37,563 nucleotides of DNA. Origin: Kofleriaceae bacterium. Lineage in GTDB: Bacteria; Myxococcota_A; Polyangia; Haliangiales; Haliangiaceae. The stretch spans positions 561,195-598,757 of the forward strand of contig JBGARE010000001.1 in NCBI GenBank assembly GCA_044230415.1. The letters are read 5' to 3'. This document shows positions 3,301-31,561 of this stretch, in pieces. The stretch's first letter is position 1. Each line of letters begins with the position of its first letter. The position numbers and the translations under genes are program-made. The notes below the pieces were generated by a model, which was not told the DNA's origin, did not search any database, and was given only the letters and a program-made list of their open reading frames with translations.

Positions 3301-3583
3301 CGAACGCCCAGCCGATCGGGATCGCGAGGAGACCGAACACGACGAGCGCGACGATCTCCACGATGCGTGGTCTCTCGGCCCGCGTGCGCGCGAACGGGAC
3401 GAACGCGATGGCGATCAGAGAGAGAGCCGCGATCGCGAATGGGGCGGGTGTGCGATCGCGCGCGAACGCGACGAGGATCGCGATGGCGAGGATGCACGCG
3501 ATCGGCGGGACGGCGATCAGGCGCCCTCGGCCAACCAGCGTCGGTGCGGCGGCCACGCTACTCCGACGACTTGGATCCGCCAC
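323..3583 (-). CDS. Membrane-anchored Ser/Thr protein kinase with two tandem [multi-TM + coiled-coil + Hanks-type kinase] modules, 1086 aa; it could be two adjacent paralogous kinase genes read as one ORF
   Basis: Module 1 (aa ~1-560) has hydrophobic TM helices and a kinase domain with GRGGAGEVY, AVK, an atypical HGDVAPQN catalytic loop, DFG and APE. Module 2 (aa ~570-1086) has TM helices and a canonical kinase with GRGGMGEVY, ALK, HRDVKPSNL, DFG and APE. There is no stop codon between the modules. The ORF start overlaps the upstream gene's end by about 26 nt, so the true start may be a few codons in. Confidence 0.8.
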   Translation of the reverse strand: MADPSRRSSVAAAPTLVGRGRLIAVPPIACILAIAILVAFARDRTPAPFAIAALSLIAIAFVPFARTRAERPRIVEIVALVVFGLLAIPIGWAFGTSSAFAALFVLALLLAGLFADRLGGWLFFGAIAGGQAAVSALVIAGALGDESMLPFMPPGHPPWHHVSAHLAIQLLYATAFFAGRAFRARYQRLSSELDAAIQVAARRASLLDEARAEYVRTLAIGRQGVFSGQRIGSFRLGDLVGRGGAGEVYDARAEDGTILAVKLVRGDRLRDPAAVRSFIEEANTAMRIESPYVVRAREAGGLDAEIPFLAMEKLDGTDLRAVLAERGALDRAALAELASASCAALMAVHAAGLVHGDVAPQNLIKTTTGWKLIDFGSRAGAGTPHFTAPELIADPTATPTPASDLYSLAACLYAAATGNDPFAESSSSQLAHAVATRMPIDPRLQGEVADDVARVLQIGLASAPASRFSDAESFRAAFLAAVDGTLGDPLRDRAAGLPAWTVVAPSVEIEPTDVVRARTSSKAIARTVAAARTSAPAIEPVDAARGTDDTHGARDAVRHDDPHDSAVFDATRDEAWQIAFRDKARRQRAGVLGVCIGGAVFLGFIVREREALWAAWIGIAGIAITVGLHRSPQTSPRPGVAQLSSATWPWVIVGALSVGPAFALGLHSGFAAIVAFVLFVGRLFRASQTTSRSSTSVLDSQWWILVAILVGHTVAYTLFAMGAIRDLGNTPIAYVGLSPAVGWALHALYMGTYVAAFAIAAVIDRHFDRLVRSNEVALRDAAQKEALLSTARAELDRALAGETGGLFTGSTIGGYVIEKLVGRGGMGEVYEARRDGQTVALKMIRADRIAPENLRRFAREASALRQVESPYVSRVLEVGSDERVPFLAMELVDGVTLAGLLRERERLDVPTARAMIRDIARGLEDVHRAGVLHRDVKPSNLVRTSERWKLVDFGIAKFVDAPSDTTGNLVIGTPPFMAPEQLTGRAVDARSDLFSFCAVVYRALTGRSAWTTTTALAAVRPQPAEPDALVGGDVALALRIGLATQPEDRFASSVELGAAFDAAFDGRLDPATRRRALAILAREPWS

Positions 3584-4874
3584 GGAGGCCGGCGCGATTC
3601 ATCATCTTGTAGATCGTCATGCGATCGACATCGGCAGCGCGAGCGGCGGAGGAGATGTTGCCGTCGTGCGCGTCGATCAGCTCCGTGATGTATCGGCGCT
3701 CGAGCTCGTCGATGATCTTCCTCTTCGCCTCTTTGAACGGCAGCGAGACATCGAGCGACGTCGGACCGCTCGACCACTGGCGCTCCATCTCGGGGAACTT
3801 CGACAGCGTGATCGCTTGTTCGATCGATCCGCGGAGCTCGCGCACGTTGCCGGGCCAGGGCTGGCGCTCGGCCCACTCGACGAAGCCCGGAGGAAGCGGG
3901 CCGCCGCCGAACCGCTCGACGAGGTGCTCGATCAGCGGCGCGATGTCCTCGCGGCGGTCGCGCAGCGGCGGCAGGTGCACGCGCGCGACGGCGATACGGA
4001 AGTACAGGTCGGCGCGGAACGCGTCGCTGTTGACCTGTGCGGCAAGGTCGCGATTCGTGGCGGCGACCAGGCGAACATCGCACGAGATGGGCGTGACGCT
4101 TCCGATGCGACGGATCTGGCGTGTCTCGACGGCGCGCAGCAACTTCGGTTGGACATCGAGCGGAAGCTCGCCGATCTCGTCGAGGAAGAGCGTTCCGCCG
4201 TGCGCGGCTTCGAACACGCCGGGGCGCGCGGAGATCGCGTTCGTGAATGCTCCGGCCTCGTGGCCGAAGAGCTGATCTTCGACGAGCTGTGCGGGGATCG
4301 CGCCGCAATCGAGGATGATGAACGGTCCTGCACTTCGCGCGGAGCCGTGGTGGATCGCTTGGGCGGCGAGCTCCTTGCCCGTGCCGGTCTCGCCGGAGAT
4401 GAGGACCGTCGCATCGGTGGCGGCCAATCGCTGGAGCACCTCGAACACGCGGCGCATCGCTGGACTCTCCCCGACGAAGCCACCGAGGCGGCGCGCCCCG
4501 GAGATCGGAAGCTCGACGGACTCCGCGAGCGGCTCGAAGCGGATCGTGTTGTCGCCGATGCCGATCGTCGTGTTCGCGACGAGGAATCCCTCGATCACGC
4601 GCATGCCCGCGACGTGCGTCCCGTTCGTCGAGCCGAGGTCGCGCAGGCGATAGCCCGTGGACTCGAGCCGGATCTCGGCGTGGAGCGCCGAGGCGCGTCG
4701 ATCCGTGAGCTTGAGATCCGCGTTCGCGCGCCCGATCACGATCGAGGGCGAGCGAAAGACCTTCACGAGCCCGCGATCGGGTCCGCTGACGACTTCGAGT
4801 CGACACGCACGAACGTGCAGCGAGTCACCTTCGGCGCGGCGCTTCACCCAGGTCCCGGTCTCGAGGTCCGTCAC
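3558..4874 (-). CDS. Sigma-54-dependent transcriptional activator (bacterial enhancer-binding protein) with an N-terminal FHA domain and a C-terminal Fis-type HTH
   Basis: FHA-like N-terminus (VIGRANADLKLTD...STNGTHV). AAA+ sigma54-interaction domain with Walker A GETGTGKE, the GAFTNA (GAFTGA-type) loop, ESQLFGHE and the arginine finger region. C-terminal DNA-binding HTH (ISSAARAADVDRMTIYKMM). Confidence 0.9.
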   Translation of the reverse strand: MTDLETGTWVKRRAEGDSLHVRACRLEVVSGPDRGLVKVFRSPSIVIGRANADLKLTDRRASALHAEIRLESTGYRLRDLGSTNGTHVAGMRVIEGFLVANTTIGIGDNTIRFEPLAESVELPISGARRLGGFVGESPAMRRVFEVLQRLAATDATVLISGETGTGKELAAQAIHHGSARSAGPFIILDCGAIPAQLVEDQLFGHEAGAFTNAISARPGVFEAAHGGTLFLDEIGELPLDVQPKLLRAVETRQIRRIGSVTPISCDVRLVAATNRDLAAQVNSDAFRADLYFRIAVARVHLPPLRDRREDIAPLIEHLVERFGGGPLPPGFVEWAERQPWPGNVRELRGSIEQAITLSKFPEMERQWSSGPTSLDVSLPFKEAKRKIIDELERRYITELIDAHDGNISSAARAADVDRMTIYKMMNRAGLRGGSKSSE

Positions 4875-10323: not shown

Positions 10324-11148
10324 ATGACCGCATCGCCGATGGCCGCGCCGCTGACATGGGACCTCGTCTCGGCTGCCTACAGCCAAGAGGTCGTGCCGTT
10401 GTTCGAGAACTTCGCGCGCGATGCATTGCGGCTCGGCGCCGCACCTGCGGGCTCGCGCGTCGTCGACGTGGCGTGCGGCCCGGGAACGCTCGCGTTCCTC
10501 GCGGCGGCGGCCGGGCACCGTGTCGACGCGCTCGACTTCTCGCCGGAGATGCTGTCGTACCTCGAGGCGCGCCGCGAACGCGAAGGCCTCGATCGCATCA
10601 CCGCACAGCACGGCGACGGCCAAGCGCTCCCCTACGACGACGCCACGTTCGGCGCGGGGTTTTCGATGTTCGGCTTGATGTTCTTCCCCGATCGCGCGGC
10701 GGGCTTTCGCGAGCTGCGTCGCGTGCTCGTGCCCGGTGCACGCGCGGTGGTCTCGAGCTGGCCGCGGCTCGAGGACAACCCGATCTTGAGCGCGATGTTC
10801 GCCGCGATCCGCACGGCGCTGTCCTCGATCCTTCCGCCCGGCGCCGCGCAACCGAGCGCCGCGGAGATGCCGCTCTCGACGGAGGCGCTGTGCACCGCCG
10901 AGATGTCGGCGGCGTTCGCAGACGTTCGTGTTCATCGCATCGTCCACGTCCAACACGCGGACTCGGCCGACGCGCTGTGGGCGAACCTCAAGCGCACGAT
11001 GGCGCCGATCGTCCTCATGCAGCGCAACCTCGGGGACAAGTTCGCGTCCGTCGATGCCGCGGCCAACTCCGCGATCCGCAACGCGACCGGCCCGGGGAAG
11101 GTCGAGGTCCAGCTCCCGGCCTGGCTGACCGTCGGCGTCGCTGCGTAG
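10324..11148 (+). CDS. Class I SAM-dependent methyltransferase
   Basis: Motif [14 protein letters not shown], post-I acidic residue (VDALD) and a motif II region. Divergent from rph. Confidence 0.8.
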
Positions 11149-11215
11149 TCGCGCACGTGCCCCGTGTAGTCGTGGTGTCGTCGGCGATCGCGGCCCCCAC
11201 CGATACCGTCGGATC

Positions 11216-11662
11216 ATGCGCTCGGCCTCGATCTCCGCTCCGCCGATCTACATCCCGGTACAACGCATCGCGTCTGTCACCCCCGACTCGCCCATCTATG
11301 GCACCGGCACCACCGGTGCCTTCATGGCTTTCAGGGACGCCTGGATCGAGGACATGATCCTCGACGAGGGTCCGACGAGCCTCGATCTCTCGCCGTTCGA
11401 CGAGATCCACGCGTTCGCGGAGCTCGACGACGACGGCACGCCGTACACCGACGTCGATCCCGTCGCCGAGATCATCGAATCGGACGTCATCGAGATGATG
11501 GACGAGATCGATGCCGCGCTCGACGCGCTGTGCGCCGCGCTCGACGACCCAATCGACGACCACCGCATGTACCTCGTCGACCGCGACGGCAACCGCACCT
11601 ACTTCGATAGCGGCACCGCGCTGCACGCCGCCGTTCGCTCCCAGCCGCGCCGCAGTCACTAG
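11216..11662 (+). CDS. Hypothetical acidic protein (an alternative start ATG at 11324 is plausible)
   Basis: ORF in the coding strand gap. Strongly acidic (D/E-rich) with a C-terminal [19 protein letters not shown] segment. No recognizable domain. Confidence 0.3.
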
Positions 11663-20667: not shown

Positions 20668-23600
20668 ATGCGACCGATTCGCCGCCTGGCCGTCACCGTC
20701 CTGTTGCTCCTCGCCGCGTGTGGTGACGATGCCGGACTCTCCGACTACTACCCGGAGATCCCCGGCGGGAGCGCGCCGGGCGCGAGTGCAGGCGAGGTGA
20801 CCGACGCGAACCAGCTCGTCACCGGGCCCGCGCAGAGCGGCATCGTGGGCGACTTCTTCATCAAGAACGATGTCGTCACGTTCATCGTGCAAGCGCCGAC
20901 CCGCGTGATCGGCGTGATCCCGCAAGGCGGCAACGTGGTCGATGCAGTGCTCACCGATGGAACGCGGCAGACGGTGGACGATCACTTCGGCGAGCTCGCG
21001 CTGATCTACAAGCTCGGCCGCACGTGCGAGCCCGATCGGATCGAGATCGTGCGCGATGGCAGCAAGGGCGGCCCGGCCGTGCTGCGCGCGATCGGCAAGA
21101 GCGGCAACAACGACTTCATCAACATCAAGGCGATCGGCGTGTTCCGCGTCGACACCAGCGTCGATCCGGACATCACCGACGGTGTCGAGTGCGCGACGAC
21201 GTACATCCTCGAGCCCGGATCGCACGCTCTCGAAGTGCATCACTCGCTGTTCAACAAAGGCCCGGACTCCGTCGACGGACCGCTAGGAACGATGGCCGAC
21301 ATCGGCGGCTACACGGACGCGTGGTCCAACTCGCGCGGCTTCGAACGCGCCGACATCTCGGCGATCACGACGCTGTCCAAGCCCTCGCCGATCGACTTCG
21401 TGATCTATCAAGGACCGGGCGTCGCGTACGGCGTGATTCCGCGCCACCAGACACCGACGACGCATACGCAAGCGTTGATCGCCGGCGTGTCGATCATGCT
21501 CGACGGCAACGACAAGCTGCTCGATATCCTCGACGAGGATACCTACTTCCTGCACATGAAGTCGGGCGCGGGCTACCTGCAGAGCTACGACCTCGTCGTC
21601 GGTAAGGACGCCGCCGACGTGGACGAAGTGTTCCGCAAGAACGAGACGATGACCGACATCAGCGGCACCGTCATGTACAGCAACGGGACCCCGGCGGTCG
21701 GTGCGCGTGTCGGCGTGTTCGTCGATGGCAACGGCAACGGAACGCTGGAACCGAGCGAGATCGATGACGATGACAACGGTGTCCCCGATGACCGGGTGAT
21801 CTCGTATCTCGATGTCGACGCGACGGGTCATTACGCCGGAAAGATCGCGTCGACAGCGGGCAACCTCCTCGTGCGCGCGTGGGTCAAGAATGCTGGAAAG
21901 TCACAGGTCGCCCCGGCGGCCGCATCCGTCAACCTCGCGATTCCGGCTCCGATCAAGGTGGACTACCAGATCCTCGATTTCGCCACGAACGCGCCCATCC
22001 CGGGCCGGCTGCTCGTCGTTGGCGATCATCCGGCATTCCCCGATGCGCGCGTGTTCGAGACGTCGGACCGCCTCGGCGATGTGGTGCAGTTCGCGCACTC
22101 GATCCGCGGCACGACGACCGATGTCGGTGATGGCGCCGATCCCGCGCTGCTCCTGCCGGCCGATGGCTCCTATCGCGTCTACGCGTCGCGCGGCACCGAG
22201 TGGTCCATCGATTCGCAGGCGCTCAACAGCACGACCGATGCGTCGCTGCAGTTCTCGCTGCGCCAGGTCAACCCGTCGGCGGGCTACGTGTCGAGCGACT
22301 GGCACGTGCACCAGGTCGGCTCGCCCGATTCGAACGTGCTCTCCGACGAACGCATTCGCAGCGCCGTGTCGGCGGGCACCGAAGTGTTCGCGGTGACGGA
22401 TCACGATTACGTGAGCGACCTGCAACCGCTCGTCGAGCAGATGGGGCTCGCGGCGGTCCTGCGCGTGTTTCCCGGCATCGAGGTCACGCCGTTCGCATAC
22501 GGCCACTTCAACGCGTGGCCGCTGGAGCCGGTCGATGACTCGCCGAACAAAGGCGCGATCGATTGGGCGCGCGGTCGCGAAGGCTTCGGCATGGTGCCGG
22601 GCGAGATCTTCGCGGCGATGCGCGACCGCGGCGCGCGGATGGTGCAAGTCAACCATCCACGCGAGGTCGGCTTCACCGAGTTCCAAGGTGCGTGGACGCG
22701 CGCGAACGTGAAGTACGACTACGGCAACCGGACGATCTTCGGCGACTACGAAGGAGCGAGCACGCCAAACGATTGGCTGCGCCTGCCGGGCGAGTCGCTG
22801 TGGAGCGATCAGTTCTCGGGCCTCGAGGTGTGGAACGGCTTCTCGATGACCGACTCCAACGGCGACGGCGTGCGCGAAAACCAGAAGCTCGATCGCGTGA
22901 TGCGCGATTGGCTCTCGATGCTCTCGCTCGGTCTGTTCGTCACGCCCGCCGGCAACAGCGACACGCACTACACGATCGCGGATCCGGTCGGCATGCCGCG
23001 GACGTATATCCGCGTCACCGACGATTCTCCGACGGCGCTGTCGAGCGGCTCGATCGTCGAGGACATCCTGACGACGCAGACCGGCGCGAACTCGCGGCCG
23101 CGCGACATCGTGGTCACGAACGGCCCGTTCATCGACGTGCAGGTCAGCAACATGCCCGCGCTCGGCCGCGTGTTCACGCCGAATGGTGGCAACGGGCAGA
23201 TCACGGTCAACGTGACGATCACGTCGCCGGACTGGGCGGAGTTCGACACGCTCGAGGTGTTCGCCAACACCGCGCCCGATAACCTCCGCAACGCGCAGGA
23301 AGAGACCACCCTCGTCCCGCTCAAGTGCTGGACGAGCCGCACGCTCGGGTCGCTGATGGCGACCGACCCGTGCACGCGCGCGGCGATCGCCCCCGAGGCC
23401 ATGACCGTCCAGCTCCAGAACGTGTCCGGCGGCGGCGGGTTCCAGCGCTACGAGGCCACCGTGACGGTGACGCTCGACGCGAACGACATCGTCACGCGCG
23501 CGGGTCACACCGGCACCGATGCGTTCCTCGTGTTCCGGGTCCGCGGCGACCGGGCGATCTTCCCGCTCCTGACCGGGTCGGGCGCCATCGATGCCACCAC

Positions 23601-23739
23601 GCGCCCCGCGATCATGAGTGGGAATCCCGCACAGCTCCGCGCGGCACTCGTTGGCAAGGGTGTGTTCGCGGAAGCGTTCACCTCACCGGTGTTCGTAGAC
23701 TTCGATGGAGGCGGCTACCGAGCGCCGTTCGCCCCCTGA
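20668..23739 (+). CDS. Large lipoprotein with a PHP-type (CehA/McbA-like) metal-dependent phosphoesterase domain and beta-rich (carboxypeptidase-regulatory-like) domains
   Basis: Lipoprotein signal with LLLAAC lipobox. PHP motifs SDWHVHQVGSPDS, FAVTDHDY, GIEVT and QVNHPRE. The CarbPepReg-like segment reads ISGTVMYSNGTPAVGARVGVFVDGNGNG. Confidence 0.78.
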   Translation: MRPIRRLAVTVLLLLAACGDDAGLSDYYPEIPGGSAPGASAGEVTDANQLVTGPAQSGIVGDFFIKNDVVTFIVQAPTRVIGVIPQGGNVVDAVLTDGTRQTVDDHFGELALIYKLGRTCEPDRIEIVRDGSKGGPAVLRAIGKSGNNDFINIKAIGVFRVDTSVDPDITDGVECATTYILEPGSHALEVHHSLFNKGPDSVDGPLGTMADIGGYTDAWSNSRGFERADISAITTLSKPSPIDFVIYQGPGVAYGVIPRHQTPTTHTQALIAGVSIMLDGNDKLLDILDEDTYFLHMKSGAGYLQSYDLVVGKDAADVDEVFRKNETMTDISGTVMYSNGTPAVGARVGVFVDGNGNGTLEPSEIDDDDNGVPDDRVISYLDVDATGHYAGKIASTAGNLLVRAWVKNAGKSQVAPAAASVNLAIPAPIKVDYQILDFATNAPIPGRLLVVGDHPAFPDARVFETSDRLGDVVQFAHSIRGTTTDVGDGADPALLLPADGSYRVYASRGTEWSIDSQALNSTTDASLQFSLRQVNPSAGYVSSDWHVHQVGSPDSNVLSDERIRSAVSAGTEVFAVTDHDYVSDLQPLVEQMGLAAVLRVFPGIEVTPFAYGHFNAWPLEPVDDSPNKGAIDWARGREGFGMVPGEIFAAMRDRGARMVQVNHPREVGFTEFQGAWTRANVKYDYGNRTIFGDYEGASTPNDWLRLPGESLWSDQFSGLEVWNGFSMTDSNGDGVRENQKLDRVMRDWLSMLSLGLFVTPAGNSDTHYTIADPVGMPRTYIRVTDDSPTALSSGSIVEDILTTQTGANSRPRDIVVTNGPFIDVQVSNMPALGRVFTPNGGNGQITVNVTITSPDWAEFDTLEVFANTAPDNLRNAQEETTLVPLKCWTSRTLGSLMATDPCTRAAIAPEAMTVQLQNVSGGGGFQRYEATVTVTLDANDIVTRAGHTGTDAFLVFRVRGDRAIFPLLTGSGAIDATTRPAIMSGNPAQLRAALVGKGVFAEAFTSPVFVDFDGGGYRAPFAP

Positions 23740-23821: not shown

Positions 23822-24556
23822 ATGAAGCAATCGATCTGGGAGCTGATGAGTCATGGCGGCGGCGCGATGTACGTCGTCGTCGGGTTCTCGATCATCGCCC
23901 TGGCGGTCGGCATCGAACGCGCGATCGCGCAGTGGAACTTCGTCACGCGCGCCCGCCTCCTCGGCGAGACCGTCACGAAAGCCCTCTCGCGCGGCGCCCT
24001 CGAAGCAGGACGCACGGCGTGCGAGAACTCCCCATCGCCGATCGCGGACGTGTTCCTCGTCGGCTTCGACAAGCACGGCAAGGCCAAGCCCGAGCACGTC
24101 GTCACCGCGGTTCACCGCGAGCGTATGCGGGTCAATCAAGACCTGAAGACGCGCCTGTGGATGCTCGGCACCGTCGGCGCGACCGCACCGTTCGTCGGTC
24201 TGTTCGGTACCGTCGTCGGCATCATGACCGCGATGGACGATCTCGATCCCGAGCAGACCGTCAAGCTCGGCGAAATCTCCGGCCCGATCTCGTCCGCGCT
24301 GATCGTGACCGCCGCCGGTATTCTCGTCGCTGTCGAAGCGGTGATCCTGTTCAACTACTTCAGCCAGCGCGCGAACCGCATCGCTACCGAGATGAAGCTC
24401 CTCACCGACGAGTTCCTCGAGCTCCTGCTCGAAGCTCCGTCGGATTCGCTTCCGCGCAAGAGCAAGCCCTCCGACTCGGACCGCGACAAGCCCGAGACCA
24501 AGTCCGAAACCAAGCGCACCAAAGGCGACGACGATGGCTCTCGGGAAGCTGCCTGA
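23822..24556 (+). CDS. MotA/TolQ/ExbB family proton-channel protein
   Basis: 3-TM topology with the conserved block LGTVGATAPFVGLFGTVVGIMTAM...GPISSALIVTAAGILVAV. Confidence 0.9.
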   Translation: MKQSIWELMSHGGGAMYVVVGFSIIALAVGIERAIAQWNFVTRARLLGETVTKALSRGALEAGRTACENSPSPIADVFLVGFDKHGKAKPEHVVTAVHRERMRVNQDLKTRLWMLGTVGATAPFVGLFGTVVGIMTAMDDLDPEQTVKLGEISGPISSALIVTAAGILVAVEAVILFNYFSQRANRIATEMKLLTDEFLELLLEAPSDSLPRKSKPSDSDRDKPETKSETKRTKGDDDGSREAA

Positions 24557-25037
24557 CGCGGACGGCGACGCGGGAGATGAAGGCGGAGATGGGATCTTCG
24601 CCGAGATCAACATCACCCCGCTGACCGACGTCTTCCTCGTGATGGTGATCATCTTCATGGTGAGCGCGCTCGCCGTGCAGGTCGAACGCAACGTCGAGAA
24701 GAAGCAGCAGAAGCAGGACGAGACGCAAGCCGAGGTCGAGAAGCGCTCGGGCATCAAGGTCAACCTGCCGTCCGGCGCGGCCCAAGAGATCGATCCCTCG
24801 AAGGCCTCGCTCGTCCTGATGATCCCGATCAACGGTCCGGTCGTCGTCGGGGGCAAGGCCATGACCGACGCCGAGCTCGACAACCTCTTCCGCGCCGCCT
24901 TCGCGCGCGACAAGAACACGCAGGTCGTCCTCAAGGCCGACAAAGGCGTGCAGCACGGCAAGGTCGTAAATTTGATGGAGCGTGCGAAGACCGTCGGTCT
25001 CACGCGCCTCGCCATCGGCACCAGCGGCGGCGGTTAG
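24534..25037 (+). CDS. ExbD/TolR family biopolymer transport protein
   Basis: Single N-terminal TM helix (INITPLTDVFLVMVIIFMV) and a periplasmic ExbD fold (VVLKADKGVQHGKVVNLMERAKTVGLTRLAIGT). Overlaps the MotA/ExbB-family gene by 23 nt. Confidence 0.85.
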   Translation: MALGKLPDADGDAGDEGGDGIFAEINITPLTDVFLVMVIIFMVSALAVQVERNVEKKQQKQDETQAEVEKRSGIKVNLPSGAAQEIDPSKASLVLMIPINGPVVVGGKAMTDAELDNLFRAAFARDKNTQVVLKADKGVQHGKVVNLMERAKTVGLTRLAIGTSGGG

Positions 25038-25202
25038 CGCCCCAACCACACACTGTAGGTCACGGCGCGTCCACCCGCGAGGTCGGCGGAGCTGCTGGAG
25101 AGTCCACAATTGTGACAGGCGTTCCTTCGGGCAGATCGACGGCGATGTTGCCGTTCTGGACCTTGCCCGTGAGCTTCATGGGATCGAGCCTAGCGCGCAC
25201 GG

Positions 25203-26732
25203 TCACTTTGCCTCCGCGATGATCGCGAGTAGGTCGGCGACGACGGTCTTCGAACGATACGCGACCACGCGGCGATCGCTCGTGCCCACGCTGTCGAGGC
25301 TCGCGTCGCGAGTCTCGTCGACGACCAGCACCACCCGATCGATTCCGGCGGCGCGATACCGCGCCAGCTTGGCCGTCAGGTACTCGGCGGTCGCGAAGCC
25401 GACGACCTCCACGAACCAACATCGGGAACGATCAGGCTCGTTCCTCGGCAGCGCTCCGGCGATCACGCGAGGCGCGATCCGATCTGCCTCGGCGGTCATC
25501 TGCGATGCGAGCAGTGCGGCGAGGTCGGGGATCAGATCGCGATCGTCTTCCAGGTCCTCCTCGCGGTTCGCTCCGCTAGCATTGCGGTTCGCTTCGCTAG
25601 CATTGCGGTTCGCTCCGCTGGCGTTGCGGTTCGCTCCGCTGGCGTCGCGGTTCGCTCCGCTGGCGTCGCGGTTCGGCTCGGTCCCGGAGACCGACGTCGG
25701 ACCGACGAGCTCGAGCGCGAGATCGGGAAACAGCCGATCGCTTGCGTGCGCGATCGGCGGTGGATCGAGCTCGACGAGCACATCGCGCACGCTGCCCATC
25801 GCGCTCGCGATCTTCGCCGCGATGCTGGGCCTCCCTCGTTCGTTCGTCGGCGCGGGTGGCAACAGAGCCGGCGATGTCACGCGGAGCGCGGCCATGCCGT
25901 AGCCGAAGTCCGCGTCGATCTCGACGACAAATCGGTCCAGTCCGGACAACAACGGCACGACCGCACCGAGCGACCGGCCATAGACGCTCGTCTGGTGGAA
26001 CAACGAGAGCGGCCCGACGATGTCGATGATGGTGTGGTCGCGTGTGGCGAGGGCATCGCGCGTGGTGAGGGCATCGCATGTGGCGAGTGCATCGCGTGCG
26101 GCGAATGCATCGCGCGTCCGCGCGGCCGAGACGCGCACGAGGAGCCCGTAGCGTGCAGCGGTGCGGATCAGCGGGTGCGCGTTGCCCCAGGCGTGGATGC
26201 GCACGTGCTTCGCGCGACGAAGTGCCCGCTGGATTCGATCCACGTTCGCGTACGCGGCGAGCCGGTGCTCCTCGGGCCGGCCACTCGGCAGCGTGACCGG
26301 GCGCTCGTCCGCGAGATCGATCCACAGCAGGCTCTCGATCTCGGAGGGCTCGATGCCGAGCTCGTCGCCCGCCTTCGCGAGGCGCTGCGTGCGCGAATCG
26401 TCGTCGAGCGCCGGTTGGCCGAGGACCGCAGCGCGCACCTTGCGCGCGACCTTCGTGCGCTGCGCGCGGCCGTCCATCATGCGGCGCATCGCGACGAGGA
26501 TCGCGGCCACGCGGACTCCGCGGATCGGCGAGTGATCGAGGCGCTCGCGCAACACGCGCCAGGGTTGGCCCACGCAGCTCATGACGTGGTCGAGCACGAT
26601 GGCGATCCACGGCAGATCGGTCGCGTCGTAGAGGCGGACATCGGTGGCCGCGGCCGCTTCGAGGAGCTCGAGCTCGTCGGTGTCATCGTCGTCATGGTGG
26701 CTCGCATCGGCGCGTACATCACGCGCGATCAC
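25203..26732 (-). CDS. DUF790-family (Bax1-like) putative endonuclease, partner of the XPB-like helicase; carries two internal tandem-repeat expansions
   Basis: Its size (~509 aa) and its position immediately downstream of an XPB-type helicase with an ATGA start/stop overlap, plus the C-terminal region CWFVEVVGFATAEYLTAKLARYRAAGIDRVVLVVDE, are consistent with the DUF790/Bax1 nuclease family. The family assignment is from my recollection of the family, not from a search. Confidence 0.65.
   Translation of the reverse strand: MIARDVRADASHHDDDDTDELELLEAAAATDVRLYDATDLPWIAIVLDHVMSCVGQPWRVLRERLDHSPIRGVRVAAILVAMRRMMDGRAQRTKVARKVRAAVLGQPALDDDSRTQRLAKAGDELGIEPSEIESLLWIDLADERPVTLPSGRPEEHRLAAYANVDRIQRALRRAKHVRIHAWGNAHPLIRTAARYGLLVRVSAARTRDAFAARDALATCDALTTRDALATRDHTIIDIVGPLSLFHQTSVYGRSLGAVVPLLSGLDRFVVEIDADFGYGMAALRVTSPALLPPAPTNERGRPSIAAKIASAMGSVRDVLVELDPPPIAHASDRLFPDLALELVGPTSVSGTEPNRDASGANRDASGANRNASGANRNASEANRNASGANREEDLEDDRDLIPDLAALLASQMTAEADRIAPRVIAGALPRNEPDRSRCWFVEVVGFATAEYLTAKLARYRAAGIDRVVLVVDETRDASLDSVGTSDRRVVAYRSKTVVADLLAIIAEAK
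25562..25676. repeat. 21-bp in-frame tandem repeat x5 (unit ~cgctccgctggcgttgcggtt) encoding (ASGANRN)n inside the DUF790 gene
   Basis: Read directly from the sequence, lines 25561-25680. Confidence 0.85.
26036..26117. repeat. 15-bp in-frame tandem repeat x5 (ggcgagggcatcgcg variants) encoding (RDALA/TCDALT)n inside the DUF790 gene
   Basis: Read directly: gcgtgtggcgagggcatcgcgcgtggtgagggcatcgcatgtggcgagtgcatcgcgtgcggcgaatgcatcgcg. Confidence 0.8.
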
Positions 26733-28159
26733 GGCGCACCTCCGATTACCGCGTCGGTCATCGCAGCGCGGCGGCGCGTGACGTAGCCGACCTCGGTGGA
26801 GTCTTCGACGGCGAGCTCGTAGACGCGCGCGCGTTTGCCATCGCGCGGACGCAGCACGCGACCGATGCGCTGCACGTGACGCCGCGCGGAGGCGGTTCCG
26901 CCCACGACGATGGCCACGTCGGCGTCGGGGACATCGATGCCCTCGTCGAGGACTTGCGAGGACACGAGGACGGGCACGTCACCGGCGCGGAAGCGCGCGA
27001 GGGCGTCCGCGCGCTCGGCCTTTCCGATCTCGTGCGTGATCGGCTGGACGAGGAGCTCGCGCGCGATCGCGTACGCGGTGGCATTGTCGCCCGTGAAGAT
27101 CAGCGTGCGTTGGTTCGGGTGCAGGGCCAGCAGCTGGCGGAGAGCGGCGCGCTTGCCGCGCGGGTACGACAGGATCGAGCGATAGGTGCGCCAGGAGGCG
27201 AGGGCGTCGCGGCCCGCGCGGGATTGACGCGCATCGCGAACGAACTCGTGCCACGGGGCACCGCGCGACGTACGCATGTACGGCGCGTAGACCGAAGTGA
27301 AGCGCGCGCGATGCTCGCGATACAGAGCGCGCTCGTCACAGGAGAGTCGGATCGGGACCGTGACGAGCTGGTACTCGGAGAGCGCGTCGCCGGCGAGGTC
27401 GTCGATGGACAAGCTGTAGACCACGGGGCCGACGAACCGAGCGAGGCGCTCTTTGGTGGCGGGCTCGGTGGGTGGTGTCGCGGTGAGGCCCAGGCGGTAC
27501 GGCGCGACGAGCATCTCGAGGACTTCGGTCGGGCACATCGAGCCGAGGTGGTGGGCTTCGTCGACGATGACGAGACCGAAGCGATCGCCGATGCGTTGTG
27601 CCCACGAGATGGCGGAGGCAAACGTGGACACGGTGATCGGCGCGACCTGGTGTTCGCCGTCGCCGAGGCGGCCGATCGGGTACGACCACGCGGCGGCGAG
27701 GGTGCGCGCCCATTGATCGAGGAGGACGCGCGTGGGCACGAGCACGAGCGTGGACACCGCGAGTTGCGAGATCGCGGAGATGGCGGCGAGCGTCTTGCCC
27801 GAGCCCGTGGGAAGTGCGAGCACGCCGCGCCGACGGGCGGCTTCCCACTTCGCGAGCGCTTCGTTCTGGTACCAGCGAAGCGCTGGGAAGGACCAGGTGC
27901 CGGACAGCGGCGAGATGCGAGTCTCGTCCGATATTCGGACGGGCTTGTCCGCCAGTCGGACAATCAGCGACGCATAGTGATGCGCTGGAAGGCGCCACGC
28001 GAGCTGGTCCTGATCGCGAGTAGCTCCTGGAATCTGCGCGGGATCTTCGTCTGCAGACTCTGCTTCCAACACCAACGTTCCACGATCGAATCGAATACGC
28101 ATGCGAACGTGCGAAGCAACGGGCGTACCGAATCCGCGAGCGGGATCGCTTCGCAGCAC
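26729..28159 (-). CDS. Superfamily-2 DNA helicase of the XPB/ERCC3/Rad25-like type (ResIII-like N-terminal lobe)
   Basis: LRWYQNEAL (Q-motif region), motif I LPTGSGKT, motif II VIVDEAHHL, motif III LGLTATP, motif VI QRIGRVLR. N-terminal ~100-aa extra domain. The true start may be the internal Met at 28102 (MRIRFDRG...). Confidence 0.85.
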   Translation of the reverse strand: MLRSDPARGFGTPVASHVRMRIRFDRGTLVLEAESADEDPAQIPGATRDQDQLAWRLPAHHYASLIVRLADKPVRISDETRISPLSGTWSFPALRWYQNEALAKWEAARRRGVLALPTGSGKTLAAISAISQLAVSTLVLVPTRVLLDQWARTLAAAWSYPIGRLGDGEHQVAPITVSTFASAISWAQRIGDRFGLVIVDEAHHLGSMCPTEVLEMLVAPYRLGLTATPPTEPATKERLARFVGPVVYSLSIDDLAGDALSEYQLVTVPIRLSCDERALYREHRARFTSVYAPYMRTSRGAPWHEFVRDARQSRAGRDALASWRTYRSILSYPRGKRAALRQLLALHPNQRTLIFTGDNATAYAIARELLVQPITHEIGKAERADALARFRAGDVPVLVSSQVLDEGIDVPDADVAIVVGGTASARRHVQRIGRVLRPRDGKRARVYELAVEDSTEVGYVTRRRAAMTDAVIGGAP

Positions 28160-28188
28160 GAGCCGGAGGATTTGCGTACGATGACGCG

Positions 28189-29211
28189 ATGACCGCGAAT
28201 CCGATCGGCATCGTTCGTTGGACGTTGGCGGCGTTCCACGCGAACCCCGACGTCGGTGATGGCGAGCTCGTCCAGATCCTCGAGGACGCGGGGCTCCCGC
28301 ATGCAGCGCGCGCCGTGATGATGCTGCCGCTCGCGTACGGTCGCCGCATCCTCGACGGGCTCGTCACGGTGAAGCCCACGTACTTCGATGGCGATCGCGA
28401 GCTCGTGCTCGCCGACGATCCGATCTTCGCCGCGGCGGAGCGACTCGCGCGCACCGAAGCGAGCCGCGCGGATCTCGATCGCATCGGGCTGCGCAGCTCC
28501 GAGGTCGATGCGGTGAACCAAGCGCTGCATCGCGGATCGAAGCCGGAGGACCTCGAGCTCTCGTCGCCGGTGATGTCGATCGTCGAGCGCGAGGTGCCCG
28601 AGCATCCCGAAGCGCAGCAGGTGCTCGACGAGCTCGTTCGCGCGCACAACTCGACGCTGTCGCTCCACGCGCGCATGTTTCCCGGGCGCATCACGAAGGG
28701 CCGCGTGCAGCTCCAGCTCGATGTCGTCGCCGACGTCGGCGGGCGCGAGCTGATCGAATCGTTCGGCGGGTTCGGCGCGACGATCCACGCCGCCATCGGC
28801 GACACGATGACGAAGTTCACGGGCGGCACGCTGCACGTGCTGCTCGCGACGCTGGATCGCAAGGAGCTCGGCGCCGAGCAGGTCGAATGGGAAGCGTGGG
28901 GCGACTTCGATGCCTGCCTCGGCAACGTGCTCCGCATGTGGAGCCAAGGTGGGCCGCCGCACCTGGCCGAGTACATCGAGGCGCTCAAGCGCGAGCTCCT
29001 CGCAGCGAACCTGTCGCCCGAGGTCCATTGGGTGCGCACGTACCTCGCGACCGACGGCAAAGAGCAGCTCGGGCTCGACATGCTCGTCGACAACGACACC
29101 TGGTCGCCCGGCGAGAAGCTCGCGCGCGAGTGGCCGTGGCCGGTCGCCGACGCGTTCTACGCGCTCCGTCACTTCTTCATGTTGGTTCCATCGAAGCGCG
29201 AGACGAACTGA
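28189..29211 (+). CDS. Hypothetical protein (340 aa), divergently transcribed from the helicase/nuclease pair
   Basis: Long ORF with coding-like composition. No motif I can recognize. Confidence 0.5.
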   Translation: MTANPIGIVRWTLAAFHANPDVGDGELVQILEDAGLPHAARAVMMLPLAYGRRILDGLVTVKPTYFDGDRELVLADDPIFAAAERLARTEASRADLDRIGLRSSEVDAVNQALHRGSKPEDLELSSPVMSIVEREVPEHPEAQQVLDELVRAHNSTLSLHARMFPGRITKGRVQLQLDVVADVGGRELIESFGGFGATIHAAIGDTMTKFTGGTLHVLLATLDRKELGAEQVEWEAWGDFDACLGNVLRMWSQGGPPHLAEYIEALKRELLAANLSPEVHWVRTYLATDGKEQLGLDMLVDNDTWSPGEKLAREWPWPVADAFYALRHFFMLVPSKRETN

Positions 29212-29277
29212 ACCGCGTGATGTCGGGCTGATGTCGGGGATTCCCGACGGGGTGCGTACAACCAGCACACCGTCCTT

Positions 29278-29282
29278 GGAGG
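29278..29282 (+). promoter_or_regulatory. Shine-Dalgarno GGAGG, 5 nt upstream of the ATG at 29288
   Basis: Read directly: ccttGGAGGaatcgATG. Confidence 0.6.
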
Positions 29283-29287
29283 AATCG

Positions 29288-29863
29288 ATGTCACGCATTC
29301 GCTTGGTTGGCTTTGTTCTCGTCGTCGCTGCTGCTGCCTGTGCCACCGACGGGCAGGGAGACGACGACGGCATGGGTTCGGGCAGCGGTTCCGGATCCGG
29401 ATCTGGCTCGGGCAGTGGCTCTGGTTCGGGCAGTGGCTCGGGCAGTGGCTCTGGCAGCGGCAACTACGTGCCGGTCGAGGGCGTGTGGCACTACGTCGAC
29501 TTCACCGCCGTCTCGAACAACTGCCCGAGCCTCGTCGACACCGGGCAGCTCGCCGGCAACTTCGGCATCACGAACGCGGGACCGACGGGGTTCCACGTGG
29601 TCCCGAACGACAGCACCGGCGAGTTCGATTGCTCGCTCGCCAGCTCGGTGTTCGACTGCCCGAACCGCGCCACGATCGACTACGACATCGGCACGAGCGC
29701 TTCGATCGCGGGCACCGCCACAGCGCACGGGACGTTCTCGTCGACGACACGCGCCACCGGCACGCAGAACGCGCACGTGACGTGCACGGGCGTCGGTTGC
29801 GCGGCGATCGGTTTCGGCGCGGCGTGCGACTTCAGCGTCAACTTCACGATCCTGGCGCAGTGA
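29288..29863 (+). CDS. Small lipoprotein with a (GS)14 flexible linker and a C-terminal 8-Cys domain
   Basis: Signal peptide with lipobox (LVVAAAAC). GMGSGSGS...GSGN linker. Cys-containing C-terminal domain. Preceded by a strong SD. Confidence 0.6.
   Translation: MSRIRLVGFVLVVAAAACATDGQGDDDGMGSGSGSGSGSGSGSGSGSGSGSGSGSGSGNYVPVEGVWHYVDFTAVSNNCPSLVDTGQLAGNFGITNAGPTGFHVVPNDSTGEFDCSLASSVFDCPNRATIDYDIGTSASIAGTATAHGTFSSTTRATGTQNAHVTCTGVGCAAIGFGAACDFSVNFTILAQ
29374..29462. repeat. Gly-Ser dipeptide-coding microsatellite (ggY-tcN/agY)n, ~14 units
   Basis: Read directly from the sequence. Confidence 0.85.
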
Positions 29864-29938: not shown

Positions 29939-31561
29939 TCAGAGAAGAACGCCGCCGGTAGGCACACCGGCATCGGGCGCCGGCGGCGCGGGCTCGGCCG
30001 CGCTGCCTTCCTTCGGCGGCTCGACGGGCAACGCCACGCCGAGCGGCGCTGTCGACGTCGGCGTCTCCGACGGTGGCATCGGCGGGAACGCGACGGCGCC
30101 CTTCTCGCCACCCGGTCCTGCGCGCAGCTCGTCGGCGAGCCGGCGCGCGTGCATCGCCCACCCTTCGGCATCCGTGTTCGTGCGCGGCTTCTGCAGCGCC
30201 GCGGTGTCGAACTGCTTCGCGGCATCGGTCAGCGCGTCGGCGGCGGCGCGCAACCGAGCGGACGCGCGCCAGTAGGTGACGTCGCCGAGCAGCCGCTCGA
30301 GATCCTCGCGCTTCGTGATCCGATCGTTGTCCGAGGCGAGCCAGCGCGCGACGAGCAGCGCTTGCTTGAGCGCGGCTTCGGCTTCGTCGACCTTCGCGAC
30401 CGGATCCTCGGGGCCCGAGGCCGACGTCGGCGTCGACGTTCCGCCGCGTCCACCGACGAGCTTGGTCGCGCGCTCTTCGAGCATCTTCTCGAACCGCGCG
30501 GCGAGCTCGGCTTTGCTGTTCGTCTCGAACGGCGCGCACGGCGCCTCCGCCGGGATCTTCAGCGGCTTCCACTCCGCGCCGTCGAGGGAGCTCTCGCCCC
30601 ACGGCGGGAACGAGCGTCCCTGCAAGAGCACCACGCGATCCGCTTCGCACGCGATCAGGAAGCGCTCGCTGTTCGAGCGACCGACGAGCACCATCGTGGT
30701 GATCGTTCCGCCGAGCACCACCGCGAGCGCGGCGGCGAGCATCCACAGCTTGCTGCGCGGTCGCTCGCCATCGTCGCCGTCGTCGGTGGTCGCGCGCTTC
30801 TTCTTCGCCTTCTTCGCGGGTTTGTCGTCGGGGATCTGGGTCACCCCGACCGCATCGCGCAGCTCGTTCTCGACGACGATGGACGCGGGCGCAGGCGCGG
30901 CGAGGGCAGGCGCCTCTGTCCACGCGGGCTCGTCGGGCGGCGCTTGGTAGGCAGGCTCCGGCGCGTCGTAGGCCGGCTCGGGTTCGTACGCGGACGCGTC
31001 GAACGGGACGATGGGTGCCTCGTGCTCGCCGGTGACCCGAGGCGTGAACGCGGAGGGAGGCAGCGGCGCGGCGGGCTCCGGCTGTATCGATGGCGCGGCA
31101 ACGGACGTCGGCGTGGGTGTCGATACGGTCGCCCTCGCGCTCGTCGGTGGGGTCGGCGTCGGGACAGCGGACGCGGGCGTCGATGCCGTGGGCTTCGATG
31201 CGGGCGTCGGCGCAGTCGTCGATGCGGTGACTGCGGGTGTCGGCGCGGTCGTCGATGCGGTCGGCGTGGATGTCGATACGGTCGCCGGCGCAGTCGTCGA
31301 TGCGGTCGTCGGCGCAGTCGTCGATGCGGTGGCTGCGGGTGTCGGCGCAGTCGTCGATGCGGTCATCGGCGCAGTCGTCGATGCGGTGGCTGCGGGTGTC
31401 GGCGCAGTCGTCGATGCGGTCGGCGTCGGGACCGGCGTCGATGCGGTCGGCGTGCTCGTCGATGAGGACTCGCGCGAGGTCTTTCCCGTCAGGGTCTCGG
31501 CCAGCGGCAGCGGCGCGAACGGATCGCGCCGCGGTGGCTTCTTGTCATCGTCTCGCGTCAC
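29939..31561 (-). CDS. Single-pass membrane protein with an N-terminal Thr/Ala/Ser/Pro-rich tandem-repeat region
   Basis: (TASTTAPTPAA)-like units in ~10 copies, a Lys-rich patch (KPAKKAKKKR), TM helix LWMLAAALAVVLGGTITTMVLVG, and a C-terminal domain of ~250 aa without known motifs. Its start overlaps the diguanylate cyclase stop by 4 nt. Confidence 0.55.
   Translation of the reverse strand: MTRDDDKKPPRRDPFAPLPLAETLTGKTSRESSSTSTPTASTPVPTPTASTTAPTPAATASTTAPMTASTTAPTPAATASTTAPTTASTTAPATVSTSTPTASTTAPTPAVTASTTAPTPASKPTASTPASAVPTPTPPTSARATVSTPTPTSVAAPSIQPEPAAPLPPSAFTPRVTGEHEAPIVPFDASAYEPEPAYDAPEPAYQAPPDEPAWTEAPALAAPAPASIVVENELRDAVGVTQIPDDKPAKKAKKKRATTDDGDDGERPRSKLWMLAAALAVVLGGTITTMVLVGRSNSERFLIACEADRVVLLQGRSFPPWGESSLDGAEWKPLKIPAEAPCAPFETNSKAELAARFEKMLEERATKLVGGRGGTSTPTSASGPEDPVAKVDEAEAALKQALLVARWLASDNDRITKREDLERLLGDVTYWRASARLRAAADALTDAAKQFDTAALQKPRTNTDAEGWAMHARRLADELRAGPGGEKGAVAFPPMPPSETPTSTAPLGVALPVEPPKEGSAAEPAPPAPDAGVPTGGVLL
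31110..31470. repeat. ~33-bp in-frame tandem repeats (gtcgtcgatgcggtggctgcgggtgtcggcgca variants) encoding the T/A/P-rich region
   Basis: Read directly from the sequence, lines 31141-31440. Confidence 0.8.

Follow-up and report, generated by a model that had tools for sequence, protein, structure and literature searches.

An archaeal-type XPB-Bax1 gene pair of Kofleriaceae with altered signature residues and a conserved sigma-54-type promoter element

We analyzed a 37.5-kb stretch of DNA from a Kofleriaceae bacterium, referred to here as the window, in which two overlapping minus-strand genes within positions 25203-28159 encode a helicase of the archaeal XPB type and a homolog of Bax1, the nuclease that partners XPB in archaea. 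The module is a recognizable and already annotated family pair (a DEAD/DEAH helicase plus a DUF790 protein) and not a new kind of system. What is new is that the XPBs of Myxococcota have lost the RED motif, that the Bax1 clade has lost one catalytic glutamate (Glu), that the nuclease hairpin carries a repeat-bearing insertion, and that a sigma-54-type promoter element is conserved in front of the pair. We favor, with modest confidence, the explanation that an XPB-Bax1 heterodimer with changed junction recognition and nuclease chemistry processes or repairs the cell's own DNA in response to a signal. The features of the module are as follows (aa, amino acids; ORF, open reading frame).

26729-28102, minus strand: archaeal-type XPB helicase gene; the conserved ATG gives 457 aa, and the open frame extends to 28159
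26729-26732, minus strand: GTGA overlap, in which the XPB stop codon TGA shares bases with the GTG start of Bax1
25203-26732, minus strand: Bax1/DUF790 nuclease gene, 509 aa (Pfam DUF790, fold and profile)
25419-25706, minus strand: lineage-specific insertion of ~96 aa (residues 343-438) in the nuclease-core hairpin between two catalytic beta strands (alignment and model)
25563-25675, minus strand: 21-bp tandem repeat, in frame, 5.4 copies, 94% matches and no indels, encoding NRDASGA heptads within the hairpin insertion
26038-26114, minus strand: 18-bp tandem repeat, in frame, 4.3 copies, encoding RDALAT-type hexads in a second insertion (repeat search and alignment)
28115-28129, minus strand: sigma-54-type -24/-12 element GGTACGCCCGTTGCT, with GG at 28129/28128 and GC at 28117/28116

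The helicase, the nuclease and their altered residues

The ORF list placed the helicase at 26729-28159 on the minus strand (476 aa). When upstream regions were aligned, the ATG at 28102 (MRIRFDRGTL) proved to be the start kept in all 24 related loci, and we consider this codon, with a product of 457 aa, the most likely start; it leaves a gap of 86 bp to the divergent gene. The Pfam models XPB_DRD, ResIII, Helicase_C and ERCC3_RAD25_C all scored above their cut-offs, and the domains follow one another as DRD, helicase domain 1, putative thumb region and helicase domain 2. The DRD (PF18458) was detected at residues 22-79 with 33.8 bits against a cut-off of 26, in a region that aligns with the N-terminus of A. 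fulgidus XPB (AfXPB), while at the level of sequence alignment residues 232-330 match the AfXPB thumb (ThM) region without large gaps. Motifs Q, I, II, III, V and VI of superfamily 2 (SF2) are intact (YQ, PTGSGKT, DEAHH, GLTAT, SSQVLDEGIDVP and QRIGRVLR, respectively). A search of the PDB aligned helicase residues 13-467 with residues 15-467 of AfXPB (6p66/2fwr; E = 1.5e-79), followed by S. tokodaii XPB2 (E = 1.4e-72) and eukaryotic XPB (~1e-17), and the first non-XPB helicases appeared at ~1e-8. Because the alignment extends from the DRD across the two RecA-like domains and the thumb region, we assign the protein to the archaeal type of XPB and not to the type III Res subunits or another SF2 clade; a first-pass annotation of this DNA had also taken it for an XPB-like helicase. 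In a protein search with the window XPB, the matches listed were all close Kofleriaceae relatives.

The NCBIfam XPB equivalog NF045503 reached 148 bits against a cut-off of 610, in a near tie with the Dnd-associated restriction family TIGR04095 (E = 9e-42), and the best PADLOC match of the helicase was PbeA (E = 1.1e-54), confined to the helicase core at residues 171-452. These matches reflect kinship of the core alone. The PbeA and TIGR04095 helicases have an SF2 core closely related to that of the window XPB, but there is no shared DRD, no pbeBCD or dnd genes lie nearby, and the partner here is a DUF790 protein, for which PADLOC holds no model.

The 509-aa product of the second gene scored 100.6 bits with Pfam DUF790 (gathering cut-off 28.8) and fell far under the cut-off of 500 for the NCBIfam Bax1 equivalogs (46.7 and 28 bits). 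A profile of 13 clade members matched every solved Bax1 chain, from S. tokodaii (St), P. furiosus (Pf) and A. fulgidus (Af), over nearly the full length (E = 7e-31 to 2.5e-28). The structure was also predicted with AlphaFold2 from an alignment of 64 sequences (pLDDT 79.4, pTM 0.74), and with this model Foldseek placed Bax1 chains at ranks 1-8 (probability 1.00, E 1e-16 to 3e-14), the ninth match being noise (E = 0.05). By profile and predicted fold, the protein is thus a true Bax1 homolog, as the earlier annotation had proposed from its likeness to DUF790. Public gene callers predicted the same two genes on six independent metagenome contigs with an identical 509-aa protein.

The first-pass annotation had also described the two genes as translationally coupled through an ATGA overlap. 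The 4-nt overlap at 26729-26732 is there, but it reads GTGA, Bax1 starting with GTG. This start is supported by the homologs, which keep the MIAR N-terminus in the alignment. Related loci likewise have overlapping or abutting XPB/Bax1 junctions, and the arrangement suggests that translation of the two genes is coupled through GTGA.

In the window XPB, the sequence around motif III reads GLTATPPTEP, with T-E-P at the RED position. All 24 Myxococcota XPBs are without an arginine at this site, and the residues found there are unrelated and not conserved (such as PPTEP, PPDDA, PSSS and PPPPG). In contrast, motif III is followed by ER[ED]D in every archaeal XPB of our loci and by RSD in Deinococcus. 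The RED motif has been termed absolutely conserved in the XPB family (PMC3353954). Its residues touch the fork junction in S. tokodaii XPB (StXPB), where a RED-to-AAA change reduces fork binding and ATPase activity (PMC7672443).

Bax1 residues were counted in a curated 64-sequence alignment of the clade and compared with A. fulgidus Bax1 (AfBax1), in which E275, D305 and E318 form the acidic triad of the nuclease domain, and D133, E135 and N156 serve as XPB interface and second nuclease site (PMC7293015). The N-terminal site (D139, E143 and N163), which aligns to St and Pf Bax1, is invariant in 64/64 sequences. So is E442 of the nuclease core (FVEVVGF; equivalent to AfBax1 E318), and so are G445 and F446, in an alignment whose mean column identity is merely 32%; D337 (FPDL; equivalent to AfBax1 D305) is Asp in 57/64. 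The position of AfBax1 E275, the motif I Glu, is Ala305 in the window protein. Across the clade this position is Ala in 51/64 and Glu in 1/64, a loss in 63 of the 64 sequences, whereas DSxxE is retained in archaea, Anaeromyxobacter, the Polyangiaceae member and Deinococcus. The triad of the window protein is therefore incomplete, with two of its three residues present. An acidic residue at position 323, in the context R-[DE]-P, occurs in 58/64 sequences. The first-pass annotation had tied its assignment to conserved nuclease residues, and on this point it stands only in part: D337 and E442 are in place, and the motif I Glu is gone.

The spacing between D337 and E442 is 12 aa in 47/64 homologs, 84-172 aa in the eight closest sequences, which form the window subclade, and 104 aa in the window protein. 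In the model, strands 338-342 and 439-444 enclose the insertion, which sits at the tip of the hairpin and away from the catalytic strand ends. It is mostly disordered, with pLDDT <50 for residues 357-398 and a single helix at residues 402-418. A second lineage-specific insertion, at residues ~205-232, has a pLDDT of 53-56. Both tandem repeats are recent, and the insertions that host them differ in length among close relatives (84-172 aa and 25-75 aa).

These residue patterns bear on an alternative in which the C-terminal PD-(D/E)xK nuclease of the Kofleriaceae Bax1 is attenuated or inactive and Bax1 acts mainly through its N-terminal site, as an XPB regulator, a clamp or an N-terminal nuclease, making the machine chiefly a regulated DNA translocase or remodeller and not an incision complex like XPG. 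In its favor are the loss of a motif I Glu that outgroup proteins keep, a D337 that is not strictly invariant, a catalytic hairpin that tolerates 84-172 inserted residues, and the full conservation of D139, E143 and N163, at whose equivalents AfBax1 has its second nuclease site and XPB interface (PMC7293015); the loss of RED likewise suggests changed DNA handling. However, the invariance of E442, G445 and F446 and the retention of Asp at D337 in 89% of sequences, at such a low mean identity, argue for continuing selection on the nuclease core. Two acidic residues suffice in many PD-(D/E)xK enzymes, the acidic residue at position 323 might compensate for the missing one, and the insertion is placed by the model at a distance from the catalytic strand ends. 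We regard this alternative as unlikely, though it is a main rival of the favored explanation, slightly ahead of a defense role.

The chromosomal slot, descent and promoter of the pair

A genome collection was scanned with the Bax1 alignment, which gave 48 loci, and nine window proteins were then used as tblastn queries. Wherever the sequence sufficed, XPB lay directly 5' of Bax1: in 26 Kofleriaceae/Haliangiales loci, one Anaeromyxobacter locus, one Polyangiaceae locus and ~20 archaeal loci. Both Deinococcus records examined have the same overlapping helicase-to-DUF790 pair. In Kofleriaceae, the pair occupies a slot with the gene order GGDEF (a GAF-GGDEF gene), p301 (a 301-aa gene), a variable gene, XPB, Bax1, ExbD, ExbB and a 1023-aa gene. 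This order is kept even where XPB identity drops to 55-60%, and the flanks are 63-96% identical across the family. The flank next to Bax1 in the window is the convergent pair that the first-pass annotation had recognized correctly:

23822-25037, plus strand: convergent ExbB-ExbD pair, conserved slot flank (public gene calls PF01618 and PF02472)

Beyond it, at 20668-23739 (plus strand), lies the gene for a 1023-aa secreted or lipoprotein-like protein without a Pfam match, found at 60-90% identity beside ExbBD in all Kofleriaceae loci. In six loci (L024, L027, L028, L029, L031 and L032), the XPB-Bax1 pair has the opposite orientation between unchanged flanks, and one to three genes for TraB/GumN-like lipoproteins lie between ExbD and XPB.

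Compared with the closest relative, dN/dS was 0.11 for XPB and 0.31 for Bax1, with conserved neighbors at 0.05-0.22. Both genes are therefore under purifying selection, which is more relaxed on Bax1. In a rough neighbor-joining tree (midpoint-rooted, no bootstrap), the Myxococcota XPBs formed one clade, apart from archaea and Deinococcus, and the RED loss is therefore a shared derived character. The tree fits a single acquisition of XPB in Myxococcota followed by vertical descent. The G+C content of the window is uniformly high (0.62-0.74), with no compositional break at the module. On plasmid P1 of Deinococcus gobiensis (L061, 4099-7858), the pair lies directly 3' of a same-direction gene of the spore-photoproduct-lyase family, a gene order that makes a link to UV-damage repair possible in another phylum.

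We weighed whether the module could instead be a defense or anti-mobile-element system that cuts invading DNA (phage, plasmid or replication intermediates) in the manner of Cas3, Druantia or Dnd/Pbe-type effectors. The PbeA and TIGR04095 matches of the helicase core, the fast evolution of Bax1 and its hypervariable insertion would suit such a role. So would the plasmid and megaplasmid copies found in Deinococcus and haloarchaea with a canonical DUF790 query, one of them near an IS630 transposase and partition genes, and Feder & Bujnicki left a 'selfish character' possible (PMC1189080). The location of the pair argues otherwise. One fixed chromosomal slot in Kofleriaceae, with conserved flanks and no variable island, points to vertical inheritance and not to a defense island, and no defense gene was seen in the Pfam annotation of the whole 37 kb. 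Neither DUF790 nor the DUF6348 protein encoded next to the pair had a PADLOC match, and that of the helicase covers its core only. The window DUF790 protein gave no tblastn match among plasmids and phages, and a scan of viral contigs returned 13 pattern matches, none of which was confirmed. No methyltransferase or other self/non-self component accompanies the pair, and its G+C content equals that of the flanks. The variable or defense-island context considered in the first-pass annotation was thus not found; its place is taken by a fixed slot among housekeeping genes, and searches of plasmid, phage and viral collections gave no relatives of this clade. We consider a defense function distinctly unlikely.

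The favored explanation, regulated processing of the cell's own DNA, draws on the promoter as well. The sigma-54 promoter consensus at -24/-12 is TGGCAC-N5-TTGCW, with GG and GC dinucleotides 10 nt apart. When the regions upstream of XPB were aligned, the sole conserved element was GG[CT]A[CT][GA]-N4-TTGC[TC], which fits this consensus and ends 13-15 nt before the ATG. It holds this position in 25/25 Kofleriaceae/Haliangiales and Anaeromyxobacter loci, whatever the upstream gene, and the Polyangiaceae locus has TGGCACGCCTGCTGC at the XPB promoter position. The pattern GGYAYRNNNNTTGCY has a single match in the window, at 28129-28115, where 0.10 matches are expected by chance, and each related locus likewise has a single match, at the homologous site. 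Transcription is predicted to start at ~28104, and the leader would then be ~2 nt long and lack a Shine-Dalgarno sequence. Over its first 30 nt (28073-28102, minus strand; ATGCGNATTCGATTCGATCGNGGAACG), the coding sequence of XPB has conserved synonymous sites and A/T-rich codons in a genome of 68% G+C, and the same holds in the related loci L007-L033; this conservation fits a constraint on the 5' end of a leaderless mRNA.

Between 24800 and 29400 we found no sigma-70-like promoter, and a search of the same interval for intrinsic terminators gave one terminator-like match, within coding sequence and below chance expectation. No Rfam family matched in 24500-29500. SOS regulation was considered and rejected, as LexA boxes of the E. 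coli, Cheo, alphaproteobacterial, myxobacterial and Geobacter types were absent from the 160 nt upstream of XPB in all loci. We likewise set aside an 8-bp inverted repeat around the promoter, TGCGAAGC-N30-GCTTCGCA (28110-28117 and 28148-28155), which is probably due to chance because the upstream arm is not kept in L007 or L008. The heptamer GATCCCG/CGGGATC occurred in 9-10 of 24 upstream regions (150 nt before the -24 element) against 2-3 expected, a weak enrichment with variable spacing. The window copy of GATCCCG lies at ~28139-28145 (GCGATCCCGCTCG on the minus strand) and could be a candidate activator or IHF-type site.

An enhancer-binding activator gene with FHA, Sigma54_activat and HTH_8 domains is located at 3558-4874, 23 kb from the XPB operon. 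Its presence implies that the host uses sigma-54 regulation, and does not imply that this activator controls the XPB operon. The gene is overlapped by one for a Ser/Thr protein kinase of 1086 aa (323-4874 for the two, minus strand), and the pair looks like a kinase-controlled sigma-54 activator.

That the module might be a decaying relic of an old transfer from archaea, without current function, would account for the signature residues gone from both proteins, the low-complexity repeat insertions, the truncated small ORF downstream of Bax1 in the window and the archaeal mutants without phenotypes (PMC4471258), but this is very improbable, given dN/dS well under 1 for both genes, frames intact in all loci, repeats in frame, helicase motifs all intact, and a promoter, start codon and even 5' synonymous sites kept across the family.

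Neighboring genes in the window

Two genes adjoin the pair on its outer sides:

28189-29211, plus strand: divergent DUF6348 gene, a neighbor and not a module component
25060-25206, minus strand: small ORF of 48 aa, with a GTG start that overlaps the Bax1 stop (GTGA) and GGAGG 4 nt upstream

The divergent gene encodes a 340-aa protein that the first-pass annotation had described as lacking any recognizable domain and had suggested as a third component. Neither statement survived. The protein carries Pfam DUF6348 at residues 147-334 (E = 3e-29). Among 20 Kofleriaceae loci with upstream sequence, its gene adjoins XPB only in the closest relative (L008); elsewhere a lipoprotein gene or TraB/GumN-like genes take its place, or the position is empty. 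Homologs of the protein at 60%, 49% and 36% identity are found in unrelated neighborhoods without XPB or DUF790, and synteny together with these contexts rules the gene out as a third component. Of the neighborhood claimed by the first-pass annotation, the XPB-Bax1 adjacency was thus confirmed in every related locus examined, and the trio with this gene was not. The homolog at 49% identity (L057, 4610-6996) starts at the last base of a gene with PTS_2-RNA and microbial PARG domains, an arrangement that hints at partners of DUF6348 proteins elsewhere.

The small ORF has longer versions of 87-99 aa at the same position in four other lineages (L008 11489-11761, L016 11074-11337, L012 2824-3081 and L009 ~11077-11373; hmmsearch E 1e-40 to 1e-47), with a conserved N-terminal segment, MKLxGxVxNGxxAVDLPxGTPV, and a conserved C-terminal segment, EAEADRGEGIPW. 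It is missing from most loci, and the window copy is truncated. Neither the 48-aa nor the 87-99-aa forms had a significant Pfam or NCBIfam match, and we therefore dropped the suspicion, raised by the sequence, of an antitoxin-like (DUF104-type) protein. We treat the small ORF as a putative accessory third cistron, vestigial in the window.

By Pfam, the rest of the window encodes a Ser/Thr kinase, the FHA-sigma-54 activator, a GDSL lipase, a TetR regulator, Ham1, a methyltransferase, an ECF sigma factor with FecR, an SDR, a PALP enzyme, an iron-trafficking protein, a phosphoribosyltransferase and a 5'-nucleotidase, which we class as housekeeping and regulatory genes. Two fast-evolving genes without a Pfam domain lie beyond the DUF6348 gene. 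One, at 29288-29863 (plus strand), encodes a putative lipoprotein with a Gly-Ser repeat tract (tandem repeats at 29378-29461), and the other, at 29939-31561 (minus strand), encodes a 301-540-aa protein with long Thr/Ala/Pro-rich repeats (TAPTPAATASTTAP...).

Relation to known systems and proposed function

The structure and biochemistry of XPB-Bax1 are well characterized in archaea (PMC7293015, PMC7672443), and the complexes of A. fulgidus and S. tokodaii (PDB 6P66, 6P4F, 6P4O and 6P4W) consist of the same two proteins as the window pair, with the same gene order and tight coupling. The XPBs align over their full length, from the DRD through the two helicase domains with the thumb region between them, and the Bax1 proteins share a multi-domain fold, the D/E/N site near the N-terminus and the nuclease motifs PD and ExVGF. 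The window pair differs in its bacterial host, in the lack of RED and of the motif I Glu (AfBax1 E275), and in its sigma-54-type promoter. The stretch from PD to E, normally 12 aa, is 104 aa long in the window protein and contains tandem repeats.

A bacterial pair is less of a novelty because Feder & Bujnicki reported in 2005 that DUF790 genes lie next to COG1061 helicase genes in Cyanobacteria (PMC1189080). The DUF790 (COG3372) and COG1061 pairs of Cyanobacteria and of Deinococcus megaplasmids have overlapping helicase-to-DUF790 genes, as in the window (PMC1189080). The Deinococcus pair is plasmid-borne, with R-S-D at the RED position and a full DSALE/PDF/EIVGY triad, whereas the Kofleriaceae pair is chromosomal and syntenic and has lost both signatures. 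Another bacterial XPB homolog, Rv0861c of Mycobacterium tuberculosis (Mtb), is a 3'-to-5' helicase and ATPase in vitro (PMC3353954). The Mtb protein is eukaryote-like, with a long N-terminal domain, a retained RED and a much shortened thumb (PMC3353954), while the window XPB is of the archaeal type with a DRD. No bacterial XPB-Bax1 complex, that of Mtb included, was known in 2012 (PMC3353954), whereas the window XPB has a Bax1 partner gene; a review from 2026 continues to describe the complex as archaeal (PMC13024598). In our full-text literature searches, XPB-Bax1 turned up neither for Myxococcota or Deinococcus nor as a defense system.

In the explanation that we favor, the module would be a three-cistron operon, its third cistron vestigial here, that encodes an XPB DNA translocase/helicase and Bax1 as its structure-specific endonuclease partner. 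Transcription would start from the sigma-54 promoter and yield a nearly leaderless mRNA. Such a promoter requires an enhancer-binding activator, and hence a specific signal. Bax1 would be translated through coupling at the stop codon of XPB. If the proteins behave as in the archaeal complexes of known structure, Bax1 would bind XPB through D139/E143/N163, XPB, driven by ATP, would open a DNA bubble or fork or track along it, and Bax1 would nick near the single-strand/double-strand junction. Lesion bubbles, stalled forks or crosslinks are the probable targets, with the pair acting beside UvrABC, without replacing it, and not against foreign DNA. Because the pair is inherited vertically across the Kofleriaceae at a core-chromosome locus and evolves under purifying selection, we consider processing or repair of the cell's own DNA most likely. 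The way in which junctions are handled has probably changed, as has the chemistry of cleavage, since RED is lost, two acidic residues are kept and a repeat-bearing insertion sits at the hairpin tip.

Several points weigh against this explanation. A RED-less XPB may behave differently, given the effect of the RED-to-AAA change on StXPB, and the nuclease domain may be weakened, with Ala in place of the motif I Glu in 51/64 sequences. The lack of a LexA/SOS-box consensus upstream of XPB leaves no apparent direct tie to the classical damage response. Bax1 evolves ~3x faster than XPB, with an insertion of variable length, which could also fit an arms race. Even in archaea, a repair role in vivo is not established: deletions of xpb1, xpb2 and bax1 in S. 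islandicus had no phenotype, and an xpb deletion in T. kodakarensis was just marginally sensitive (PMC4471258, PMC7690668).

A bolder proposal, which we put forward tentatively and think improbable as a whole, is that Myxococcota took up an XPB-Bax1 pair of the archaeal type a single time and turned it into a machine for signal-induced DNA processing that has ceased to be an incision complex of the nucleotide-excision-repair kind. It would have a dedicated sigma-54 activator, new junction recognition and a new nuclease chemistry based on a two-acid core and the N-terminal site. In the window lineage, the disordered repeat-bearing insertion could serve as a new interaction surface. If this proposal is true, the module would for the first time allow the role of XPB-Bax1 in the cell to be approached through its regulator. 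The conserved sigma-54 promoter offers an experimental handle, as the activator and its signal should lead to an inducing condition that points to function, and the clade-wide loss of RED and of one catalytic Glu amounts to a natural experiment in what the archaeal and eukaryotic machine can do without.

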